Shown here piece by piece: positions 2,426-7,720 of a stretch of DNA of 32,000 nt. Under the pieces are notes generated by a model, which worked only from the letters and a program-made list of their open reading frames with translations, made no database searches and was not told where the DNA came from. The position numbers were made by a program, and so were the translations under genes. Where the stretch lies: the NCBI RefSeq assembly GCF_001457595.1, contig NZ_LN831039.1, positions 5,070,001 through 5,102,000 on the forward strand, written 5' to 3'. Numbering within the stretch: the stretch's first letter is position 1; every line of letters starts with the position of its first letter. The stretch comes from Mycolicibacterium smegmatis. Lineage in GTDB: Bacteria > Actinomycetota > Actinomycetes > Mycobacteriales > Mycobacteriaceae.

Positions 2426-2703
2426 GTCTCTTCCTGGCAAGGCACGCGGCATTGCAATTTTTCCCATGCGCCACCTGTTTTTTGACGGAGTCCACAGCTC
2501 CATGCGACTGCTGGCCGCAGGGCGTCGCTGTGCGACTCCTCAGCCGCAGTGATCGCCCAAAAGGCCGCCGCCGAGGTGCTGTACATCGCACGTTTTGCCG
2601 TCACCGTGGCCCGATAGCGTGGAATCACTGCAAGACTGGCGGGCTGATTCACATGAGGATGTTCAAGTGCCGAACTTGCTGAACCGACCGACTGCGCGGC
2701 TCC

Positions 2704-4068
2704 TTAATCGGGTTGGAATCCGTCGGCGAAAGCCAGGACGTGGGGAGAGAGCAGGCTGAAGGGCGGCACTTTCACACGATGGGTAAAACCAGGCCCCGTC
2801 TGAAGTGCGTACATCCCGCGCCTGCCCCCGAAGCGACCGATGAGTTCCCGCACCACCTCGGCGTTGTATGCCACGTCGGGGTACAGAACGGCCTCAATTT
2901 GGGGATGCAGGTCGCGGATGAGCGGTTGAATGTTTTGGATCATCGCCAACACGCTCGGGTCGGAGTCCATCGCTTGCAGTTCGCTACGTTTCAGCCATCG
3001 CTTATTCCAAGACCACTTGGTGTAGTCGAGCAGCGCGCTGCGGTCGACATCGACAACAACTGCAGGCTCACCGTGCAAACTTGCGGCGAAGTTGTACTTG
3101 AAAGCGTCGATACTTACGTGTCGCAACACGTCTCCCTGCACCATCAGCCAACGGTAGTCGAATGACTTCTTCTTCAAGTTTTTGAACAACTTTCGGGCGG
3201 ACCGCGTTTCATGCGCGAACCGCCCGAACTTCTCCCGAGCTCTCCTGATCGTCTGTTCTTCTAGAATTTGAAGGGCACCAGTGAACGAAACCAGCGCAGA
3301 CCGCAACTTGCGCTTGCGCTCCTCTATCGCCTCGGTATCGGTGAACGATATACCGCCAGCTTGAAGGTGGGTGATGATGTCGATCACCACATCACAAAGC
3401 CGGTCGCTTTCATCGGAAAGATGCTGAAACAAGTCAGCCTCTAACATCTTCTCCAGCGCTCTGTATGCGTGGAGATAACGGGTGTGATCAGCCGGGGTGA
3501 AAGAGGCCACCTTTTCGAAGATCGGTGCGTCAGACCGGTTTGGGTCCCGATGAAACAAGATCGCCCCGTAAGGGTCCGCCCCGGCTTCAGCGTCATCCGC
3601 ATCCAACTTAGCTTCGATGTGTGCGCCAACATCCAGCGCCGCTGTAAAAGTTGCCCCAGTGAGAGGCATTCGCTGTCTGATCTGTTCAGCGGTGGGCATT
3701 ACATCGGTGAGCCACGTTTCGCCTTCCTGCAGCAGGCGCTCTAGCGCTTCACGCAGCGATTGCTCGGCTTCAGCACGAGTGGCCCGGTCCCTAGCATCGG
3801 GCGTCTCGTAGTGGTCTCTTGTTGCGGAGTTCATCGCCTGTACCAACGCGCGCGACGTCTCGGCAATGATCACCATCGCTGGAGTGCCCGGCGGTGGCGC
3901 AGTATCCGGCGAAAGACCACTGTGCCACGCATCGGAGGCGCTCTCGCAAAAGTCCAGCGGAGTGTCACCGTCTAGCCGCGGTAATGATGCGATGAATCTG
4001 CTGAGCCAATCCAACCAGCACCGAAGCAGCACAGGATCGTTGTCATCGGTATTGCCTTCGCCAGCCAC
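2704..4068 (-). CDS. Orphan protein, 454 aa, apparently soluble and helix-rich; function unknown
   Basis: Long ORF with a GTG start at 4068, preceded by AAGGGG 9 nt upstream. No TM segment, no Walker A and no recognisable catalytic motif. Spot GC of 48-60% is well below the core. Divergent from the 4239 gene. Confidence 0.75.
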   Translation of the reverse strand: MAGEGNTDDNDPVLLRCWLDWLSRFIASLPRLDGDTPLDFCESASDAWHSGLSPDTAPPPGTPAMVIIAETSRALVQAMNSATRDHYETPDARDRATRAEAEQSLREALERLLQEGETWLTDVMPTAEQIRQRMPLTGATFTAALDVGAHIEAKLDADDAEAGADPYGAILFHRDPNRSDAPIFEKVASFTPADHTRYLHAYRALEKMLEADLFQHLSDESDRLCDVVIDIITHLQAGGISFTDTEAIEERKRKLRSALVSFTGALQILEEQTIRRAREKFGRFAHETRSARKLFKNLKKKSFDYRWLMVQGDVLRHVSIDAFKYNFAASLHGEPAVVVDVDRSALLDYTKWSWNKRWLKRSELQAMDSDPSVLAMIQNIQPLIRDLHPQIEAVLYPDVAYNAEVVRELIGRFGGRRGMYALQTGPGFTHRVKVPPFSLLSPHVLAFADGFQPD

Positions 4069-4214
4069 TGGATCCTGCCCCTTTCTAACTTAGCGTCCGA
4101 TCCTATGCCTCGGTACCGACAAGCAGGCGAACCGCCAAAGCGCGTTCGAGCGCTTTTACGACACAGGTCGGAACAGTTCCCACTGGTCGGCGAGCCACCT
4201 GCACACGAGCCAGA

Positions 4215-4233
4215 GATGCTATTCGATAGCATC
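4215..4233. promoter_or_regulatory. Perfect 8-bp inverted repeat GATGCTAT-tcg-ATAGCATC immediately upstream of the 4239 start codon
   Basis: Read directly from the sequence. It ends 5 nt before the GTG at 4239, occupying the position where a Shine-Dalgarno would be expected. Candidate operator or translational hairpin. Confidence 0.3.
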
Positions 4234-4238
4234 CGCTC

Positions 4239-5243
4239 GTGAGCAGTTTCAAACACCGCAGGCAACGCATAGAGGAAGCTCTTGGCTTCAGCGCCACAAC
4301 TTTGACCTTCCTTGGCCTGATGTTCGTCGCGGGAATTATTCTCTGCATTTCGCTCTCACTCACCGATCTCGGGATTGGTTTTACTGAACCTGCATTGCTC
4401 ACGCGATTCAACGGAGAGTGGCTGCGAAGCCACTCCTACATACCCAACATTCTCGCCGGCTTGACGGGATTTTTAGTGGGGGTGCCGGTTGCGCTAGTGG
4501 TTCTCCAAACTGTAATTGGAAAGCGCGAGGATAACGTCGAGTTAGCCAAAGCCAAGCGTGTGACCGCCGCAGCATGGCGCGACTTCCGCAGTGCGGCATT
4601 TGAATTTGGCTCTCCTACTCGACGCAATGCGTTGCTCAGCATCGCACTCCACGAGGTCTATCCGCTGTACGAAGAGATCTTTAAGCGTCTCCAGGATTAC
4701 CGAGGCCAGAAACCCTTCGTTTCTCCGACCCAGGACCAGCACGACGAACTCATCGCGTACCTGAAATCCAAAGAAGCCGAGTTCAAGCGGAAGATTGATT
4801 CGGTGACAGCGAAAGTCGGCAATATAGATGAGTTGCTGAAATTATGGTCACGCGTGCTTTCAACTTGGTCTGTGGTAAATGTATACGTGCGCTCGCGCAG
4901 AATCGAGTTGGGTCTTTCTTGGTTTAATGACGACTCGAACTCGATTTTAGTTTCCGCACTAGCCACTACAGCAAGCCCCCTTGCCGATTTCACACACGTC
5001 CATAACGGCTTCGGCGCAAGGCCACCGGCCAGTATGGACATGGCGCATCAATGGATTTTGAGCTATATACGCTGGGAGAAAGACAAGCTTGACCGAACGC
5101 TGCAGTCTGACGACAAAGTGTTCGGCGTCGAGGGTGTCGAGGACTATCGGAAACACACCCAGCAGGCCGCGCTTTTTCTGAATGGCCTTCACCACGCGAT
5201 TAAGCAGATCGATGAAGAAGGCTGGCCGGATCAGTCGGCCTGA
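4239..5243 (+). CDS. Orphan membrane protein, 334 aa: two N-terminal TM helices plus a roughly 240-aa soluble helical domain; function unknown
   Basis: ORF with a GTG start. Hydrophobic segments are TLTFLGLMFVAGIILCISLSL and ILAGLTGFLVGVPVALVVLQTVIG. This is the lowest-GC part of the window (47-48% in lines 4801-4920). No known family recognised. The start codon is uncertain because no SD is present. Confidence 0.75.
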   Translation: MSSFKHRRQRIEEALGFSATTLTFLGLMFVAGIILCISLSLTDLGIGFTEPALLTRFNGEWLRSHSYIPNILAGLTGFLVGVPVALVVLQTVIGKREDNVELAKAKRVTAAAWRDFRSAAFEFGSPTRRNALLSIALHEVYPLYEEIFKRLQDYRGQKPFVSPTQDQHDELIAYLKSKEAEFKRKIDSVTAKVGNIDELLKLWSRVLSTWSVVNVYVRSRRIELGLSWFNDDSNSILVSALATTASPLADFTHVHNGFGARPPASMDMAHQWILSYIRWEKDKLDRTLQSDDKVFGVEGVEDYRKHTQQAALFLNGLHHAIKQIDEEGWPDQSA

Positions 5244-5714
5244 ACATCAAGACCGGAAAAACACATTCCCAAGAGCCTTGGGGCGGAGTCCGACCGCAGC
5301 GGCTTCGCGGGTAAGCCGTCAGTTCCCAAGGCCCGCACGCTGCACGACGCCGATACAGCACGAACAGTCGGCCCGCGGCGGCCGCTGCCGACTACCCCAG
5401 CGGCCCGCGTGAACACGTCGAAGAAGTCTTCTGAGCGCATTGAGGGCAGATTCAGACGCGCGCTAAAAGCGGCAAATCGGCCTCGCCTCAGCGTGCGATC
5501 AAGCTCCATCCTCCGTTAATGGCACCTACTGAGGTACCCACCCTGCGGGGACACTCAGATCAGACACTCTCCACGCGGACCGTGGCACCTCTCACACAGC
5601 TTATCGGGAATTTTTTCAAATCCCCGCAGAAACTTGCTGGCCGCAACCGCCTCCGACCGATTACGCTGGCGCTACGAGTTGTGCGCATCACTCCAGGACA
5701 CAGGGGACACAGAC

Positions 5715-6143
5715 ATGAACAAGTTCATCGCAGCGGCGGTGGCCGCCGGAGCACTCGGTGCGGGGCTTGCCTTCGCCGCGCCTGCCTCGGCAGCACCCAA
5801 CTGCTCCGACGTCGTCGACAAGATCAACAACGGCGTTGAGGTCGACGGGGAGACGCAGGACTACACGCCGAGCTACACCGAGAGGTGGACCTGCGCGGTC
5901 GACATCCAGGCCAACAAGTGGGCTACGTTCCCCGGTGACCTCGCCGGCAAGTGGGCCGGTTTCCCCGCTGACACCGCCAACAAGTGGGCCGAATTCCCCG
6001 GCAAGACCGCCAAGAAGTGGACCGATTTCCCCGGCGACCTCGCTGAAAAGTGGGGCGTCGGAGGAGGGGGCGGCGGCGGTAACGGCGGCGGCAACGAGAA
6101 CGGCGGCGGCGGCGAGAACGGCGGCGGCGGCAACGAAGGCTGA
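5715..6143 (+). CDS. Secreted repeat protein, 142 aa: signal peptide, 4.5 copies of an 11-aa A-x-K-W-x-x-F-P-G-D-x repeat and a Gly/Asn/Glu-rich tail
   Basis: ATG at 5715 is preceded by AGGGGA. The signal peptide MNKFIAAAVAAGALGAGLAFAAPASA has an AxA site. Repeats read ANKWATFPGDL AGKWAGFPADT ANKWAEFPGKT AKKWTDFPGDL AEKW. The tail is GGGGGGGNGGGNENGGGGENGGGGNEG. A paralogue lies at 13130-13531. Confidence 0.8.
   Translation: MNKFIAAAVAAGALGAGLAFAAPASAAPNCSDVVDKINNGVEVDGETQDYTPSYTERWTCAVDIQANKWATFPGDLAGKWAGFPADTANKWAEFPGKTAKKWTDFPGDLAEKWGVGGGGGGGNGGGNENGGGGENGGGGNEG
5910..6056 (+). repeat. In-frame 33-bp tandem repeat (4 full units plus a partial one) encoding the KW..FPGD 11-mers
   Basis: Units start at 5910, 5943, 5976, 6009 and 6042, each beginning gcc/gct-(a/g)a(c/g/a)-aag-tgg. 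Confidence 0.9.
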
Positions 6144-6165
6144 CGCCCCACTCACGATCCACTCA

Positions 6166-6200
6166 ATCAGTGGCGATCCGCTCAGCGGGTCGCCACTGAT
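6166..6200 (+). terminator. Intrinsic-terminator-like hairpin after the repeat-protein gene
   Basis: ATCAGTGGCGA-t-CCGC-tca-GCGG-g-TCGCCACTGAT: an 11-bp plus 4-bp stem joined by a U-G pair, with a 3-nt loop, followed by cgTTTat. It lies 23 nt after the stop codon. Confidence 0.55.
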
Positions 6201-6379
6201 CGTTTATCCGGGACTTTCTCACCGCATTCACTTTTTGCGGATTCAATTGACTACCAAAACAGTCGGCAAAGAGAAATTCTCGACCGCCGGAATCGAAACC
6301 TCTCGCCGCGATACAGTCACGTTGATCGGCATCCGAGTCAGTTGGCACCTGACAGTGACACGCCGAAAGAGGGTCTCGT

Positions 6380-7720
6380 ATGCCCACGACTGCCGGCGAG
6401 TGGTTCGTCCAGATCCTGATCTTCGTGCTGGTCGCCTACCCGATCGTGGGCGGCCTGGCGTTCATCGTGTCGAGCTTCTACTACCACGTGTTCATGGAGA
6501 AGCGCGAACTGCCGCGTCATCTCGAATACGGAACGCCGTTCGTCTCGATCTTCATTCCTGCGCACAACGAAGAAGCCTCGATCGCCGGCACGATCCACTA
6601 TCTGCAGAACCAGATCAACTATCCGCCCGATAAATTCGAGATTCTCGTCATCGACGATGCGTCGACCGACAAGACGCCGCAGATCCTGGCCGATCTGCAG
6701 GACCAATATCCGGACCTTCGTGTCGTCACGATCGTCAAGAACCGAGGCAAGGCGCACGGCCTGAACGTCGCCCTCGCGTTCGCCAAAGGCGACTTCATCC
6801 TGTCGAACGATGCCGACACCAAGCCGAACCCCGACGCGCTGTGGCAGTACATGAGCTACTTCGAACGCGCGGGCGGCCACAACGTCGGGGGTGTCACGGG
6901 AAACATGCTGGCCGCCAACCGCACCACCATCACCGCGCTGGCACAGGAGAACGAGTTGAACTCGATCATCGGCCTCATCAAGCGGTCGCAGATGTCCTAC
7001 GGGGCGCTGTTCGCGTTCTCCGGCGCCAACACGATGTACCGCAAGCAGGCCGTGCTCGACGTCGGCGGCTGGCACGCCGAACAACCGACCGAGGACATCG
7101 CCATCGCATGGGACATGCAGACCGCGGGCTGGCGCGCCCTCTTCGCACCCCATATCCGGTTTTTCCTGGACGTTCCGGAGCACCTCAGGTCACTGGTCAA
7201 GCAACGGCGTCGCTGGTCATCGGGCGGCATCTACGTGCTGCTGACCAAAGGCTGGCCGTTGATGAGGCACCCGCTGCGCAACTACCGGATGATGCCGGTG
7301 ATTCTCGATTACGGGTTCAGCATCGCCTGGAGCTTCCTGTACTGGGTCGCCATGGCGCTTTTCATCCTGAGCCAGGTTTACTTCGCCGGCACCCAGAACT
7401 GGGAACGCTTCGTCCACAACTGGTACATGGTCGGCATTTTCGTGGCGATGCAGATGGTCGTCGGTGTCGTCCAACTCACCGCGGCCTCGTACTACAACGA
7501 CGGCGGCAAGACCCTCAAGTACATCCTCTTCGCGCCCTTCTACATGCTCATCTATTGGATGGTGAACACCGGGACCGTCGTCTATGAGTTCATCCCGACC
7601 GTCCGCAAGATATGGGCACAGAAAGAGGGTGGTGTCTGGAAGTCACCCGACCGGTCGGCCAGCCTGCAGGAGATCGAGCAGGCGACCACAGATCACGGCA
7701 CGGAGACGGGGCGCCCGTGA
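6380..7720 (+). CDS. Processive family-2 glycosyltransferase, PgaC/IcaA-like (poly-beta-1,6-GlcNAc synthase-like)
   Basis: 446 aa with AGAGGG upstream of the ATG. GT2 synthase motifs occur in order: IPAHNEE, VIDDAS, SNDADT, TED and the QRRRW signature of the cellulose/chitin/PNAG synthase class. There is an N-terminal TM segment plus several C-terminal TM helices. Confidence 0.9.
   Translation: MPTTAGEWFVQILIFVLVAYPIVGGLAFIVSSFYYHVFMEKRELPRHLEYGTPFVSIFIPAHNEEASIAGTIHYLQNQINYPPDKFEILVIDDASTDKTPQILADLQDQYPDLRVVTIVKNRGKAHGLNVALAFAKGDFILSNDADTKPNPDALWQYMSYFERAGGHNVGGVTGNMLAANRTTITALAQENELNSIIGLIKRSQMSYGALFAFSGANTMYRKQAVLDVGGWHAEQPTEDIAIAWDMQTAGWRALFAPHIRFFLDVPEHLRSLVKQRRRWSSGGIYVLLTKGWPLMRHPLRNYRMMPVILDYGFSIAWSFLYWVAMALFILSQVYFAGTQNWERFVHNWYMVGIFVAMQMVVGVVQLTAASYYNDGGKTLKYILFAPFYMLIYWMVNTGTVVYEFIPTVRKIWAQKEGGVWKSPDRSASLQEIEQATTDHGTETGRP

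Follow-up and report, generated by a model that had tools for sequence, protein, structure and literature searches.

We analysed two divergently transcribed genes in a stretch of 32,000 nucleotides from Mycolicibacterium smegmatis (contig NZ_LN831039.1, positions 5,070,001 to 5,102,000 of the forward strand), which is called the window throughout. The genes encode a soluble protein of 454 amino acids (aa), A454, and a membrane protein of 334 aa, B334, and the original prediction, made from the sequence alone, had proposed them as a candidate two-gene conflict or defence module. It had placed two divergent open reading frames (ORFs) 170 bp apart, and their coordinates, strands and lengths were confirmed (Table 1). 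Both frames are kept end to end in many homologues, which shows that A454 and B334 are genuine genes rather than chance ORFs. In M. smegmatis assemblies, B334 and the DNA around it match the window at 100 % identity.

The pair was also said to have the most deviant base composition in the window, and indeed the lowest-GC 1-kb segments of the full 32 kb start at positions 3901-4501 (GC 0.53-0.56), compared with a GC of 0.687 for positions 9701-32000. The GC content at third codon positions (GC3) is 0.657 for A454 and 0.612 for B334 and differs from that of both flanks, the five genes to the right of the pair having values of 0.75-0.87. The proposed character of the two products was borne out as well. 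A454 is acidic (isoelectric point 5.45; 68 Asp and Glu against 53 Lys and Arg residues) and has no hydrophobic segment, and its AlphaFold2 (AF2) model, which like that of B334 was built from the family alignment, is mostly helical with a mean confidence (pLDDT) of 86.8. In B334, aa 14-49 and 68-96 form two hydrophobic segments, after which comes a helical C-terminal domain (aa 100-330) that is confidently modelled.

The A454 family and its HEPN-type motif

Both proteins had been described as orphans that resemble no named family. The first part of this description did not survive homology searches: A454 has homologues in at least 130 clusters (90 % clusters) from Mycobacterium, Mycolicibacterium and Mycobacteroides (for example M. 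marinum, M. canetti, M. abscessus and M. paragordonae), Nocardia, Rhodococcus and Tsukamurella, nearly all of ~451 aa and all named 'hypothetical', and those of B334 form 36 clusters, with more distant relatives (~26 % identity) on eight Rhodococcus plasmids. An exhaustive profile search that included remote members raised the A454 family to 235 representatives. A single-protein scan of GTDB genomes returned one locus only, the patterns being too specific. Neither A454 nor B334 matched Pfam, NCBIfam, PADLOC or PHROGs, or any PDB sequence or fold, and 37 members of the A454 family, short forms included, gave no consistent match in Pfam, NCBIfam or PADLOC. The second part of the description therefore stood as far as library searches are concerned, but a HEPN-type motif, R[N/D]x3H, is present in the A454 family.

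Many family members are stand-alone proteins of 295-325 aa, which match only profile positions ~160-450, and the C-terminal ~290 aa of A454 are therefore taken as the ancestral core. In BLASTP comparisons this core shares 22-29 % identity with the short forms (E 1e-16 to 1e-33). The 160-aa helical N-terminus (helices 11-31, 37-50, 63-88, 98-121 and 127-163 in the AF2 model) appears from the alignment to be an addition of the long forms of the Mycobacteriales. Three small beta elements lie within the core, namely the hairpins 167-190 and 323-341 and the strands 419-439.

A conserved block, F.YR.L..LR[N/D]xxxH, runs across the family. When long and short forms were aligned, H317 (window numbering) was the sole invariant residue, and Y305, R306 and R312 were at least 90 % conserved. 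HEPN domains are recognized by an Rx4-6H signature with a polar residue (N, D or H) after the Arg, located at the end of helix-3 or the start of the next loop with the His exposed, and by a conserved acidic residue upstream, often as Ex3[K/R], in the preceding helix (PMC3710099). The A454 family shows this signature, with an invariant His, an Arg that is at least 90 % conserved and a four-residue spacer. In the AF2 model of A454, H317 is the last residue of helix 303-317, with a loop and the hairpin 323-341 after it, and in the long forms E271-x3-R275, with an invariant Q272, lies in the long preceding helix 245-281; the short forms conserve QEQ, and not the K/R of Ex3[K/R]. From these features we judge it moderately probable that the family is HEPN-like by motif, which falls short of demonstrated membership, and we infer a HEPN fold and RNase chemistry on the same grounds.

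The window protein departs from its family at a single point of this block, where it has Gly-Asp in place of Arg-Asn or Arg-Asp. A polar residue after the motif Arg is typical of the family, and window A454 has Asp there. A census of the motif dipeptide gave RD in 77 sequences, RN in 31, RG in 21, RH in 8 and GD in 23. All 23 GD sequences, together with one GA sequence, fall in the subclade of at least 60 % identity to the window protein (P0001-P0022, P0026 and P0058), here called the window subclade, and every long form outside it retains the motif Arg. The rest of the block, with Y305, R306, H317 and Q272, is kept in the window subclade, and because its proteins are full length at 60-80 % identity they must be under selection. 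If the chemistry of the family is HEPN-like, nuclease chemistry would be altered or lost in this subclade.

B334 and its association with A454

B334 is predicted to have an N-in/C-in topology with a cytoplasmic helical domain, because its N-terminus is positively charged and a charged stretch follows the second transmembrane (TM) segment. Its N-terminal extension, omitted by the 307-aa annotation of NCBI, is conserved in homologues, and the 334-aa start (GTG at 4239) is therefore favoured. Conservation peaks in the membrane module, where aa 28-89 account for 22 of the 40 invariant alignment columns and the string YIPNILAG.TGFLVGVPVA of TM2 hardly varies, even among relatives of 30-37 % identity with a diverged C-terminal domain. 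Judged from the alignment, this is the pattern expected of a functional segment, which may serve oligomerisation or form a channel, rather than of a plain anchor. No R.{4,6}H motif occurs in B334, and its invariant residues R107, W113, R128, W203, W210, R221, E223, F251 and H255 form no Rx4-6H-like motif. A domain shared by A454 and B334 was sought with hhalign, and none was found.

We then used tblastn to search for B334 at all 78 loci then available. B334 was found only beside members of the window subclade, and the two genes were divergent at every paired locus. The gap is 170 bp in the window and in the two other M. smegmatis loci (L079 and L080) and 238 bp in L093, on a contig with a TrwC relaxase, and the genes carry adjacent locus tags (08330/08340) in M. 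marinum NJB1507. In L001 (M. septicum) and L009 the partners are 1.3-1.45 kb apart, with a 272-aa ORF between them in the former, and in L084 (M. cosmeticum) a different 242-aa ORF and a 68-aa ORF intervene. Seven further metagenome contigs probably carry both genes, since same-size contigs occur in both homologue lists. Identity to the window copy declines in step for A454 and B334 (80/80, 72/72, 63/70, 61/70 and 60/64 %).

The original prediction had proposed co-occurrence of homologues as a check, and the outcome depends on the clade. An intact B334 accompanies A454 at about 13 of the 15 loci of the window subclade, at several unrelated chromosomal and plasmid sites, the exceptions being L094 and L083, and at none of about 35 loci outside it, within available flanks that reach up to 10 kb and are shorter on many metagenome contigs. 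The sites of the pair include tRNA-Arg, tRNA-Met, the TrwC-relaxase contig and an integrase region rich in insertion sequences (IS), with zero, one or two unrelated genes between the partners. The appearance of B334 coincides exactly with the loss of the motif Arg. Clustering of neighbours revealed no universal partner of A454, only clade-specific ones (B334 in one case, AbiEi/AbiEii in another), and the distant relatives of B334 are solo genes in mobile contexts, one of them directly after a cluster of DUF1156 and a Swt1-HEPN/DUF499 gene. The pairing of A454 and B334 is real and persistent, but clade-limited and dispensable.

Genomic setting of the pair and of its relatives

Beside the pair, the window holds a single copy of the 3' end of a tRNA-Arg(CCG) and, further left, an integrase and a 325-aa ORF. 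In L079, another M. smegmatis strain, the gene order is rho-thrB-thrC-hom-lysA-argS, tRNA-Arg(CCG), A454, B334 and the genes beyond, with no integrase; the tRNA is intact (L079 8030-8104) and lies directly beside A454. A454 and B334 of this locus show 99.9 % DNA identity to the window, the 325-aa gene is missing, and homology with the window begins inside the tRNA (L079 8083 corresponds to window 2402). Because the junction lies within the tRNA and the pair occurs there without them, the integrase and the 325-aa gene represent a separate, later insertion into tRNA-Arg, and the integrase was rejected as the mobiliser of the pair. The integrase element extends leftwards beyond window position 1; L080 provides a further 980 bp on that side, in which no tRNA was seen. 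The 325-aa ORF and the 272-278-aa ORFs inserted between A454 and B334 in other species (L001 8907-9725, L083 6912-7748 and L094 6983-7801) all start with MTL(I/V)...SDR; they may be related, possibly as N-terminal-nucleophile-type proteins, and have no Pfam match.

The pair itself is foreign DNA at a tRNA-Arg integration hotspot and was acquired horizontally, as indicated by its composition, by the extra genes at the argS/tRNA-Arg site of M. cosmeticum and by its tRNA-Met site in M. septicum. The features of tRNA-linked island cargo are present, namely tRNA adjacency, deviant GC3 and a variable organisation among relatives. In the window, the pair has no flanking direct repeats, no second att copy and no integrase of its own. 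In three other species, a small HTH_17 gene (Xis/AlpA-like) lies convergent to the A454 homologue and overlaps its 3' end slightly (L084 4362-4541, L083 9378-9581 and L094 9423-9626); in L083 the next gene is an integrase. From this arrangement, the pair appears to lie at the end nearest the integrase of an integrative element in these species. An HTH_17 counterpart was not noticed in window positions 2426-2703, where no specific search for one was made.

The intergenic region of the window contains two perfect inverted repeats (4137-4143/4150-4156 and 4215-4222/4226-4233). On the minus strand, a Shine-Dalgarno-like AAGGGG precedes the GTG of A454 by ~10 nt, and on the other side TAGCAT (TANNNT, 4227-4232) ends 6 nt before the GTG of B334. 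A TANNNT hexamer close to the start codon is the geometry typical of leaderless mycobacterial mRNAs, and from its position the B334 transcript may be leaderless. No sigma-70 consensus promoter, convincing terminator or Rfam match was found in the region. In other subclades, a leader of ~110 nt upstream of the A454-homologue start is conserved (L002, L005, L007, L010, L015, L022, L024, L031 and L089) and reads ..GACACGCC..TTGTCGGACC..CGATTCTGT.CGGCTGCCCACC.GAAGGGAGCCACAC.ATGATGTGACAGT..GAAAGG..GTG. It travels with the A454 homologue in diverged loci with different neighbours and holds a short hairpin and an ATG-TGA start-stop; the window clade retains only TTGTCGGTACC. A structured RNA was rejected for this leader (RNAalifold gave a 6-bp hairpin with 0 compensatory pairs, and there was no Rfam match), as was a conserved small upstream ORF, whose matches were alternative-frame artefacts.

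A454 relatives typically occur as lone genes, carried by plasmids, integrative elements or defence islands, and restriction-modification genes are among their neighbours. In M. canetti, an AAA+/S8 peptidase lies upstream and a Shedu SduA_C gene downstream, with a Swt1-HEPN/DUF499 gene and an IS nearby; the Rhodococcus fascians locus has GmrSD_N, HEPN_MAE_28990 and an AAA_21 ATPase; and on the R. opacus plasmid pCP135 the family gene adjoins an integrase. At 7-8 metagenome loci (among them L011-L013, L016, L017, L020 and L058), AbiEi (207 aa) and AbiEii (293 aa) lie 62-95 bp upstream on the same strand, which suggests a three-gene unit of a nucleotidyltransferase toxin pair and a HEPN-like protein. 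Among 132 further neighbouring ORFs, we found AbiEii seven times, PD-T4-6 three times (E ~1e-122), Eco57I-type methylases twice, integrases three times, and transposases; these tallies are raw counts. Library scans revealed no known defence gene flanking the pair in the window itself. Proximity to known defence genes, also put forward as a check, is seen for many members of the A454 family, but not for the window pair.

All four independent short-form loci adjoin a multi-TM protein, and these proteins are mutually unrelated (Table 1). The stand-alone short forms share apparent operons with them, and the operons of L091 and L092 lie beside an ESX/type VII secretion cluster. In the window, two genes downstream of B334 also have features of their own. 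One (5634-6143, plus strand) encodes a predicted secreted 169-aa protein with four 33-nt (11-aa) tandem repeats ANKWA.FPGDL at 5910-6074 and a Gly/Asn-rich tail from GGCGGC repeats (6057-6137), whose sole Pfam match is weak and LPXTG-like. The other (6380-7720, plus strand) encodes an intact family-2 glycosyltransferase of 446 aa; in L079 (12061-13346) it is split, an indel of ~46 bp (window 7034-7080) breaking the frame.

Table 1. Positions of the pair, of its predicted domains and of related features. Positions refer to the window unless another locus is named.
Feature	Positions	Strand	Basis or remarks
A454 gene	2704-4068	minus	ORF, GTG start, 454 aa
A454 C-terminal domain (aa 161-454), family core, probably HEPN-like by motif	2707-3588	minus	Profile search and alignment
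A454 motif block YRWLMVQGDVLRH (aa 305-317)	3118-3156	minus	Family consensus YR.L..LR[N/D]xxxH
A454 N-terminal helical extension (aa 1-160), long forms only	3589-4068	minus	Short forms lack it
Divergent A454-B334 intergenic region	4069-4238		170 bp
B334 gene	4239-5243	plus	ORF, GTG start, 334 aa
B334 predicted membrane module: TM1 (aa ~15-49), 25-aa external loop, TM2 (aa ~68-95)	4281-4523	plus	Hydropathy and alignment
tRNA-Arg(CCG) 3' end (~22-24 nt), att remnant	2402-2425	plus	Single copy in window; junction of the integrase element (<=2401) with the pair
Integrase	986-2176	minus	phrog_1, 6e-47
325-aa ORF	12-989	minus
Short-form locus L086	L086 7001-8523		189-aa 3-TM gene overlapping the stop codon
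Short-form locus L088/L090, Rhodococcus pRB29	L090 3788-5888		118-aa 2-TM protein and 251-aa 2-TM protein ending LRLRNRIAHG
251-aa 2TM-HEPN protein	L090 4141-4896		Textbook HEPN motif LRLRNRIAHG
Short-form loci L091 and L092, Mycolicibacterium conjugative plasmids	L091 3827-5927; L092 3759-5879		Operon: helix-turn-helix gene, 260-aa 3-TM gene, short form

Interpretation and comparison with known systems

Our tentative best explanation, to which we give a little less than an even chance, is that the pair is a mobile cassette of the conflict or abortive-infection type, in which a degenerate HEPN-like A454 is coupled to the membrane partner B334. Members of the A454 family would be mobile conflict proteins, each a single-gene effector of the abortive-infection or toxin type and probably a HEPN-type RNase; conflict RNases are the most likely identity because the members typically occur as lone, self-contained genes dispersed over defence islands, plasmids and integrative elements. 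With the change of the motif Arg to Gly, the nuclease centre of the window subclade would have degenerated, and it is this subclade alone that would have acquired and kept the divergent two-TM B334. Its A454 may no longer be a nuclease, or may no longer act alone, and would work with B334 as a two-component module. A454 would provide the cytoplasmic sensing or regulatory subunit, and B334, which is most constrained in its membrane segments, the membrane-acting partner that provides or modulates the output. A physical or functional interaction of A454 with B334 is inferred, as are the assignment of the effector and any antiphage role. The two-gene defence module of the original prediction is in part upheld by the co-travel of the pair in divergent orientation, by the parallel divergence of its members, by the defence and mobile neighbours of A454 relatives and by the foreign composition of the pair at a tRNA hotspot, but the pairing is confined to one clade and not obligatory, and the suggested roles of sensor and membrane-disrupting effector are putative.

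Several observations weigh against this explanation. In L094, A454 has only a 272-aa neighbour and B334 is absent within 8 kb. In Mycobacterium sp. SMC-8 (L083), an IS21-family element (transposase and IstB; 2915-6555) splits the B334 homologue, a natural knockout, and because the adjacent A454 homologue is intact, A454 is tolerated without B334. Both families consist mostly of solo genes, so the adjacency could be a legacy of island structure. A general link of the long forms with TM neighbours is not supported, these occurring at about the background rate. The palindromes of the window were rejected as a conserved operator, since they are not conserved in L093, the other compact locus, and we therefore claim no shared operator. 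Searches of IMG/VR and of 50,697 phage genomes returned no homologues of A454 or B334, and a prophage origin of the pair was rejected on this account.

The HEPN assignment is exposed as well. The window subclade reads QGDVL[R/Q]H at the motif, and window A454 has no R.{4,6}H anywhere. The Foldseek check proposed with the original prediction came back empty for A454 against PDB and BFVD, giving no link to a HEPN fold, and B334 likewise had no PDB fold match. HMMER searches against Pfam, NCBIfam, PADLOC and PDB gave no link to a HEPN profile, hhalign comparison with HEPN_MAE_28990-like and 2TM-HEPN single sequences gave a probability of <1 %, the profiles A1, A2 and A3 returned only noise from PDB sequences, and the four-helix up-down bundle of HEPN proteins, similar to solved structures, was not recovered. 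As profile and fold links are absent, the HEPN call rests on a short motif and its position in a helix.

The main rival to the cassette explanation is, in our estimate, on the unlikely side. A454 would be self-sufficient, B334 would be an unrelated gene, and their adjacency would reflect an inherited island backbone that carries independent single-gene cargo. Most A454 relatives lack B334 or any other fixed partner, distant relatives of B334 are solo, unrelated genes separate the partners in several genomes, and the two are divergently transcribed and do not form an operon; L094 and L083, as set out above, fit the same picture. The Arg-to-Gly change could then be an unrelated feature of the lineage, possibly compensated by another basic residue, for example R306, or R316 in window A454, and HEPN families that lack the Arg but keep the His, and are maybe still active, have been documented (PMC3710099). 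What this explanation does not account for is the retention of intact B334, always in divergent orientation, at several unrelated sites in nearly the whole subclade, the exact coincidence of the appearance of B334 with the loss of the motif Arg, and a GC3 shared by A454 and B334 that is distinct from both flanks.

The conflict cassette could also be read in a bolder form, which we regard as unlikely in its entirety. The window would then capture a transition within a defence-protein family not described before. A self-contained HEPN-type RNase effector, common on mycobacterial and nocardial plasmids and in their defence islands, would have lost its catalytic Arg and become the cytoplasmic sensor or regulator of the two-TM effector B334, making the pair a new two-component antiphage system of the Mycobacteriales. 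The nearly invariant Pro/Gly-rich helices of B334 would form a killing or depolarising device, and the family would repeatedly combine one soluble domain with changing membrane effectors, as in the short forms beside unrelated multi-TM proteins.

It is quite improbable that the two genes are instead an addiction pair, similar to toxin-antitoxin (TA) modules, in which one product is toxic, the other neutralises it, and both maintain a mobile element or tRNA island with no antiphage role. The pair is always on mobile DNA (tRNA islands, integrases and Xis-like HTH_17 genes, the relaxase contig, plasmids), A454 relatives adjoin the type IV TA pair AbiE, and HEPN proteins are classical TA toxins (PMC3710099). 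On the other hand, the M. smegmatis cassette persists beside tRNA-Arg with no integrase of its own, B334 is hardly an essential antitoxin since it is destroyed by an IS or absent where A454 is intact, 334-454 aa is large for TA components, and the would-be toxin lacks the predicted catalytic Arg. Most improbable of all is an ordinary physiological role as a membrane-associated regulator or stress protein with a cytoplasmic partner, tied to cell-envelope genes: a GT2 glycosyltransferase, a small membrane protein, the secreted repeat protein and a PNPOx-like gene do follow on the B334 strand, and defence libraries match neither A454 nor B334, but these downstream genes have a native-like GC3 (0.75-0.87) unlike that of the pair and do not accompany it in other species, and the distribution of the pair is patchy, strain-variable and on plasmids and islands, with no housekeeping synteny.

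Antiphage immunity in mycobacteria, of which little has been mapped, is relevant to phage therapy of M. abscessus and to M. smegmatis genetics. The A454 family occurs on plasmids, in islands and near defence systems, yet is absent from Pfam, NCBIfam and PADLOC; if it is a HEPN-type effector, a new defence family is added, and the subclade with a membrane partner and no motif Arg would show, as an experiment of nature, how a nuclease effector is rewired into the sensor of a membrane effector. The local picture is also corrected, the neighbouring integrase being unrelated to the pair, and even a modest reading can be tested directly in M. smegmatis.

Among known systems, the A454 family is closest in outline to the stand-alone HEPN RNases Abi2/AbiD/AbiF, AbiV and RloC/PrrC, with which it shares an all-alpha core, a near-invariant R-[N/D]-x3-H at a helix end with a candidate acidic residue upstream, and a single-gene organisation in defence islands and other mobile DNA. 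A single-gene HEPN-motif defence is known in mycobacteria from gp57r of prophage Butters (bioRxiv 10.1101/2023.01.03.522681), which, like the A454 family, was assigned to HEPN by motif and not by a library match. A454 differs from HEPN RNases in having no detectable sequence, profile or Foldseek similarity to them, and in a core of ~290 aa with three beta-hairpins, much larger than a minimal HEPN domain, to which the long forms add their 160-aa helical N-domain; in window A454 the motif Arg is gone and no Rx4-6H is left at all. In this last respect the window clade resembles Parep1/8, in which the motif Arg is absent and the His kept, and the inactive HEPN domains of eukaryotic Swt1, which serve as binders or sensors (PMC3710099): the His is kept and the Arg lost clade-wide under purifying selection. 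It differs from both in that the loss coincides with the gain of a specific membrane-protein neighbour.

For the membrane side, Csx28 of type VI-B CRISPR systems is a TM protein with a divergent HEPN domain that forms a pore in the membrane upon activation of Cas13b (bioRxiv 10.1101/2021.11.02.466367), and HEPN-TM fusions have been listed (PMC3710099). Common to these and the window pair are a HEPN-type module, a small helical membrane protein, a defence setting and a plausible perturbation of the membrane, and a true 2TM-HEPN protein (L090) adjoins a short-form member of the A454 family. In the window, however, the soluble and membrane parts are separate divergent genes, B334 has no Rx4-6H and there is no CRISPR association. 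By analogy, the resemblance of Csx28 to the pair is in possible working and not in homology. A cytoplasmic and a membrane protein, gp30 and gp31, also form a prophage exclusion pair in Butters, as cited in the gp57r study (bioRxiv 10.1101/2023.01.03.522681). The host genus and the combination of a soluble with a membrane protein are the same as for A454-B334, but A454 and B334 have no homologues in the phage collections searched. This precedent shows only that such an architecture works in the host.

AbiE is linked to the family by the AbiEi-AbiEii genes near A454 homologues of another subclade; A454 is neither AbiEi nor AbiEii, and the window has no AbiE genes. The combination of HEPN proteins with nucleotidyltransferases is a classical one. 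Against this background, the A454 proteins are a widespread, unannotated family with a known type of catalytic signature, and the Arg-less, membrane-partnered variant in the window is one not previously described.

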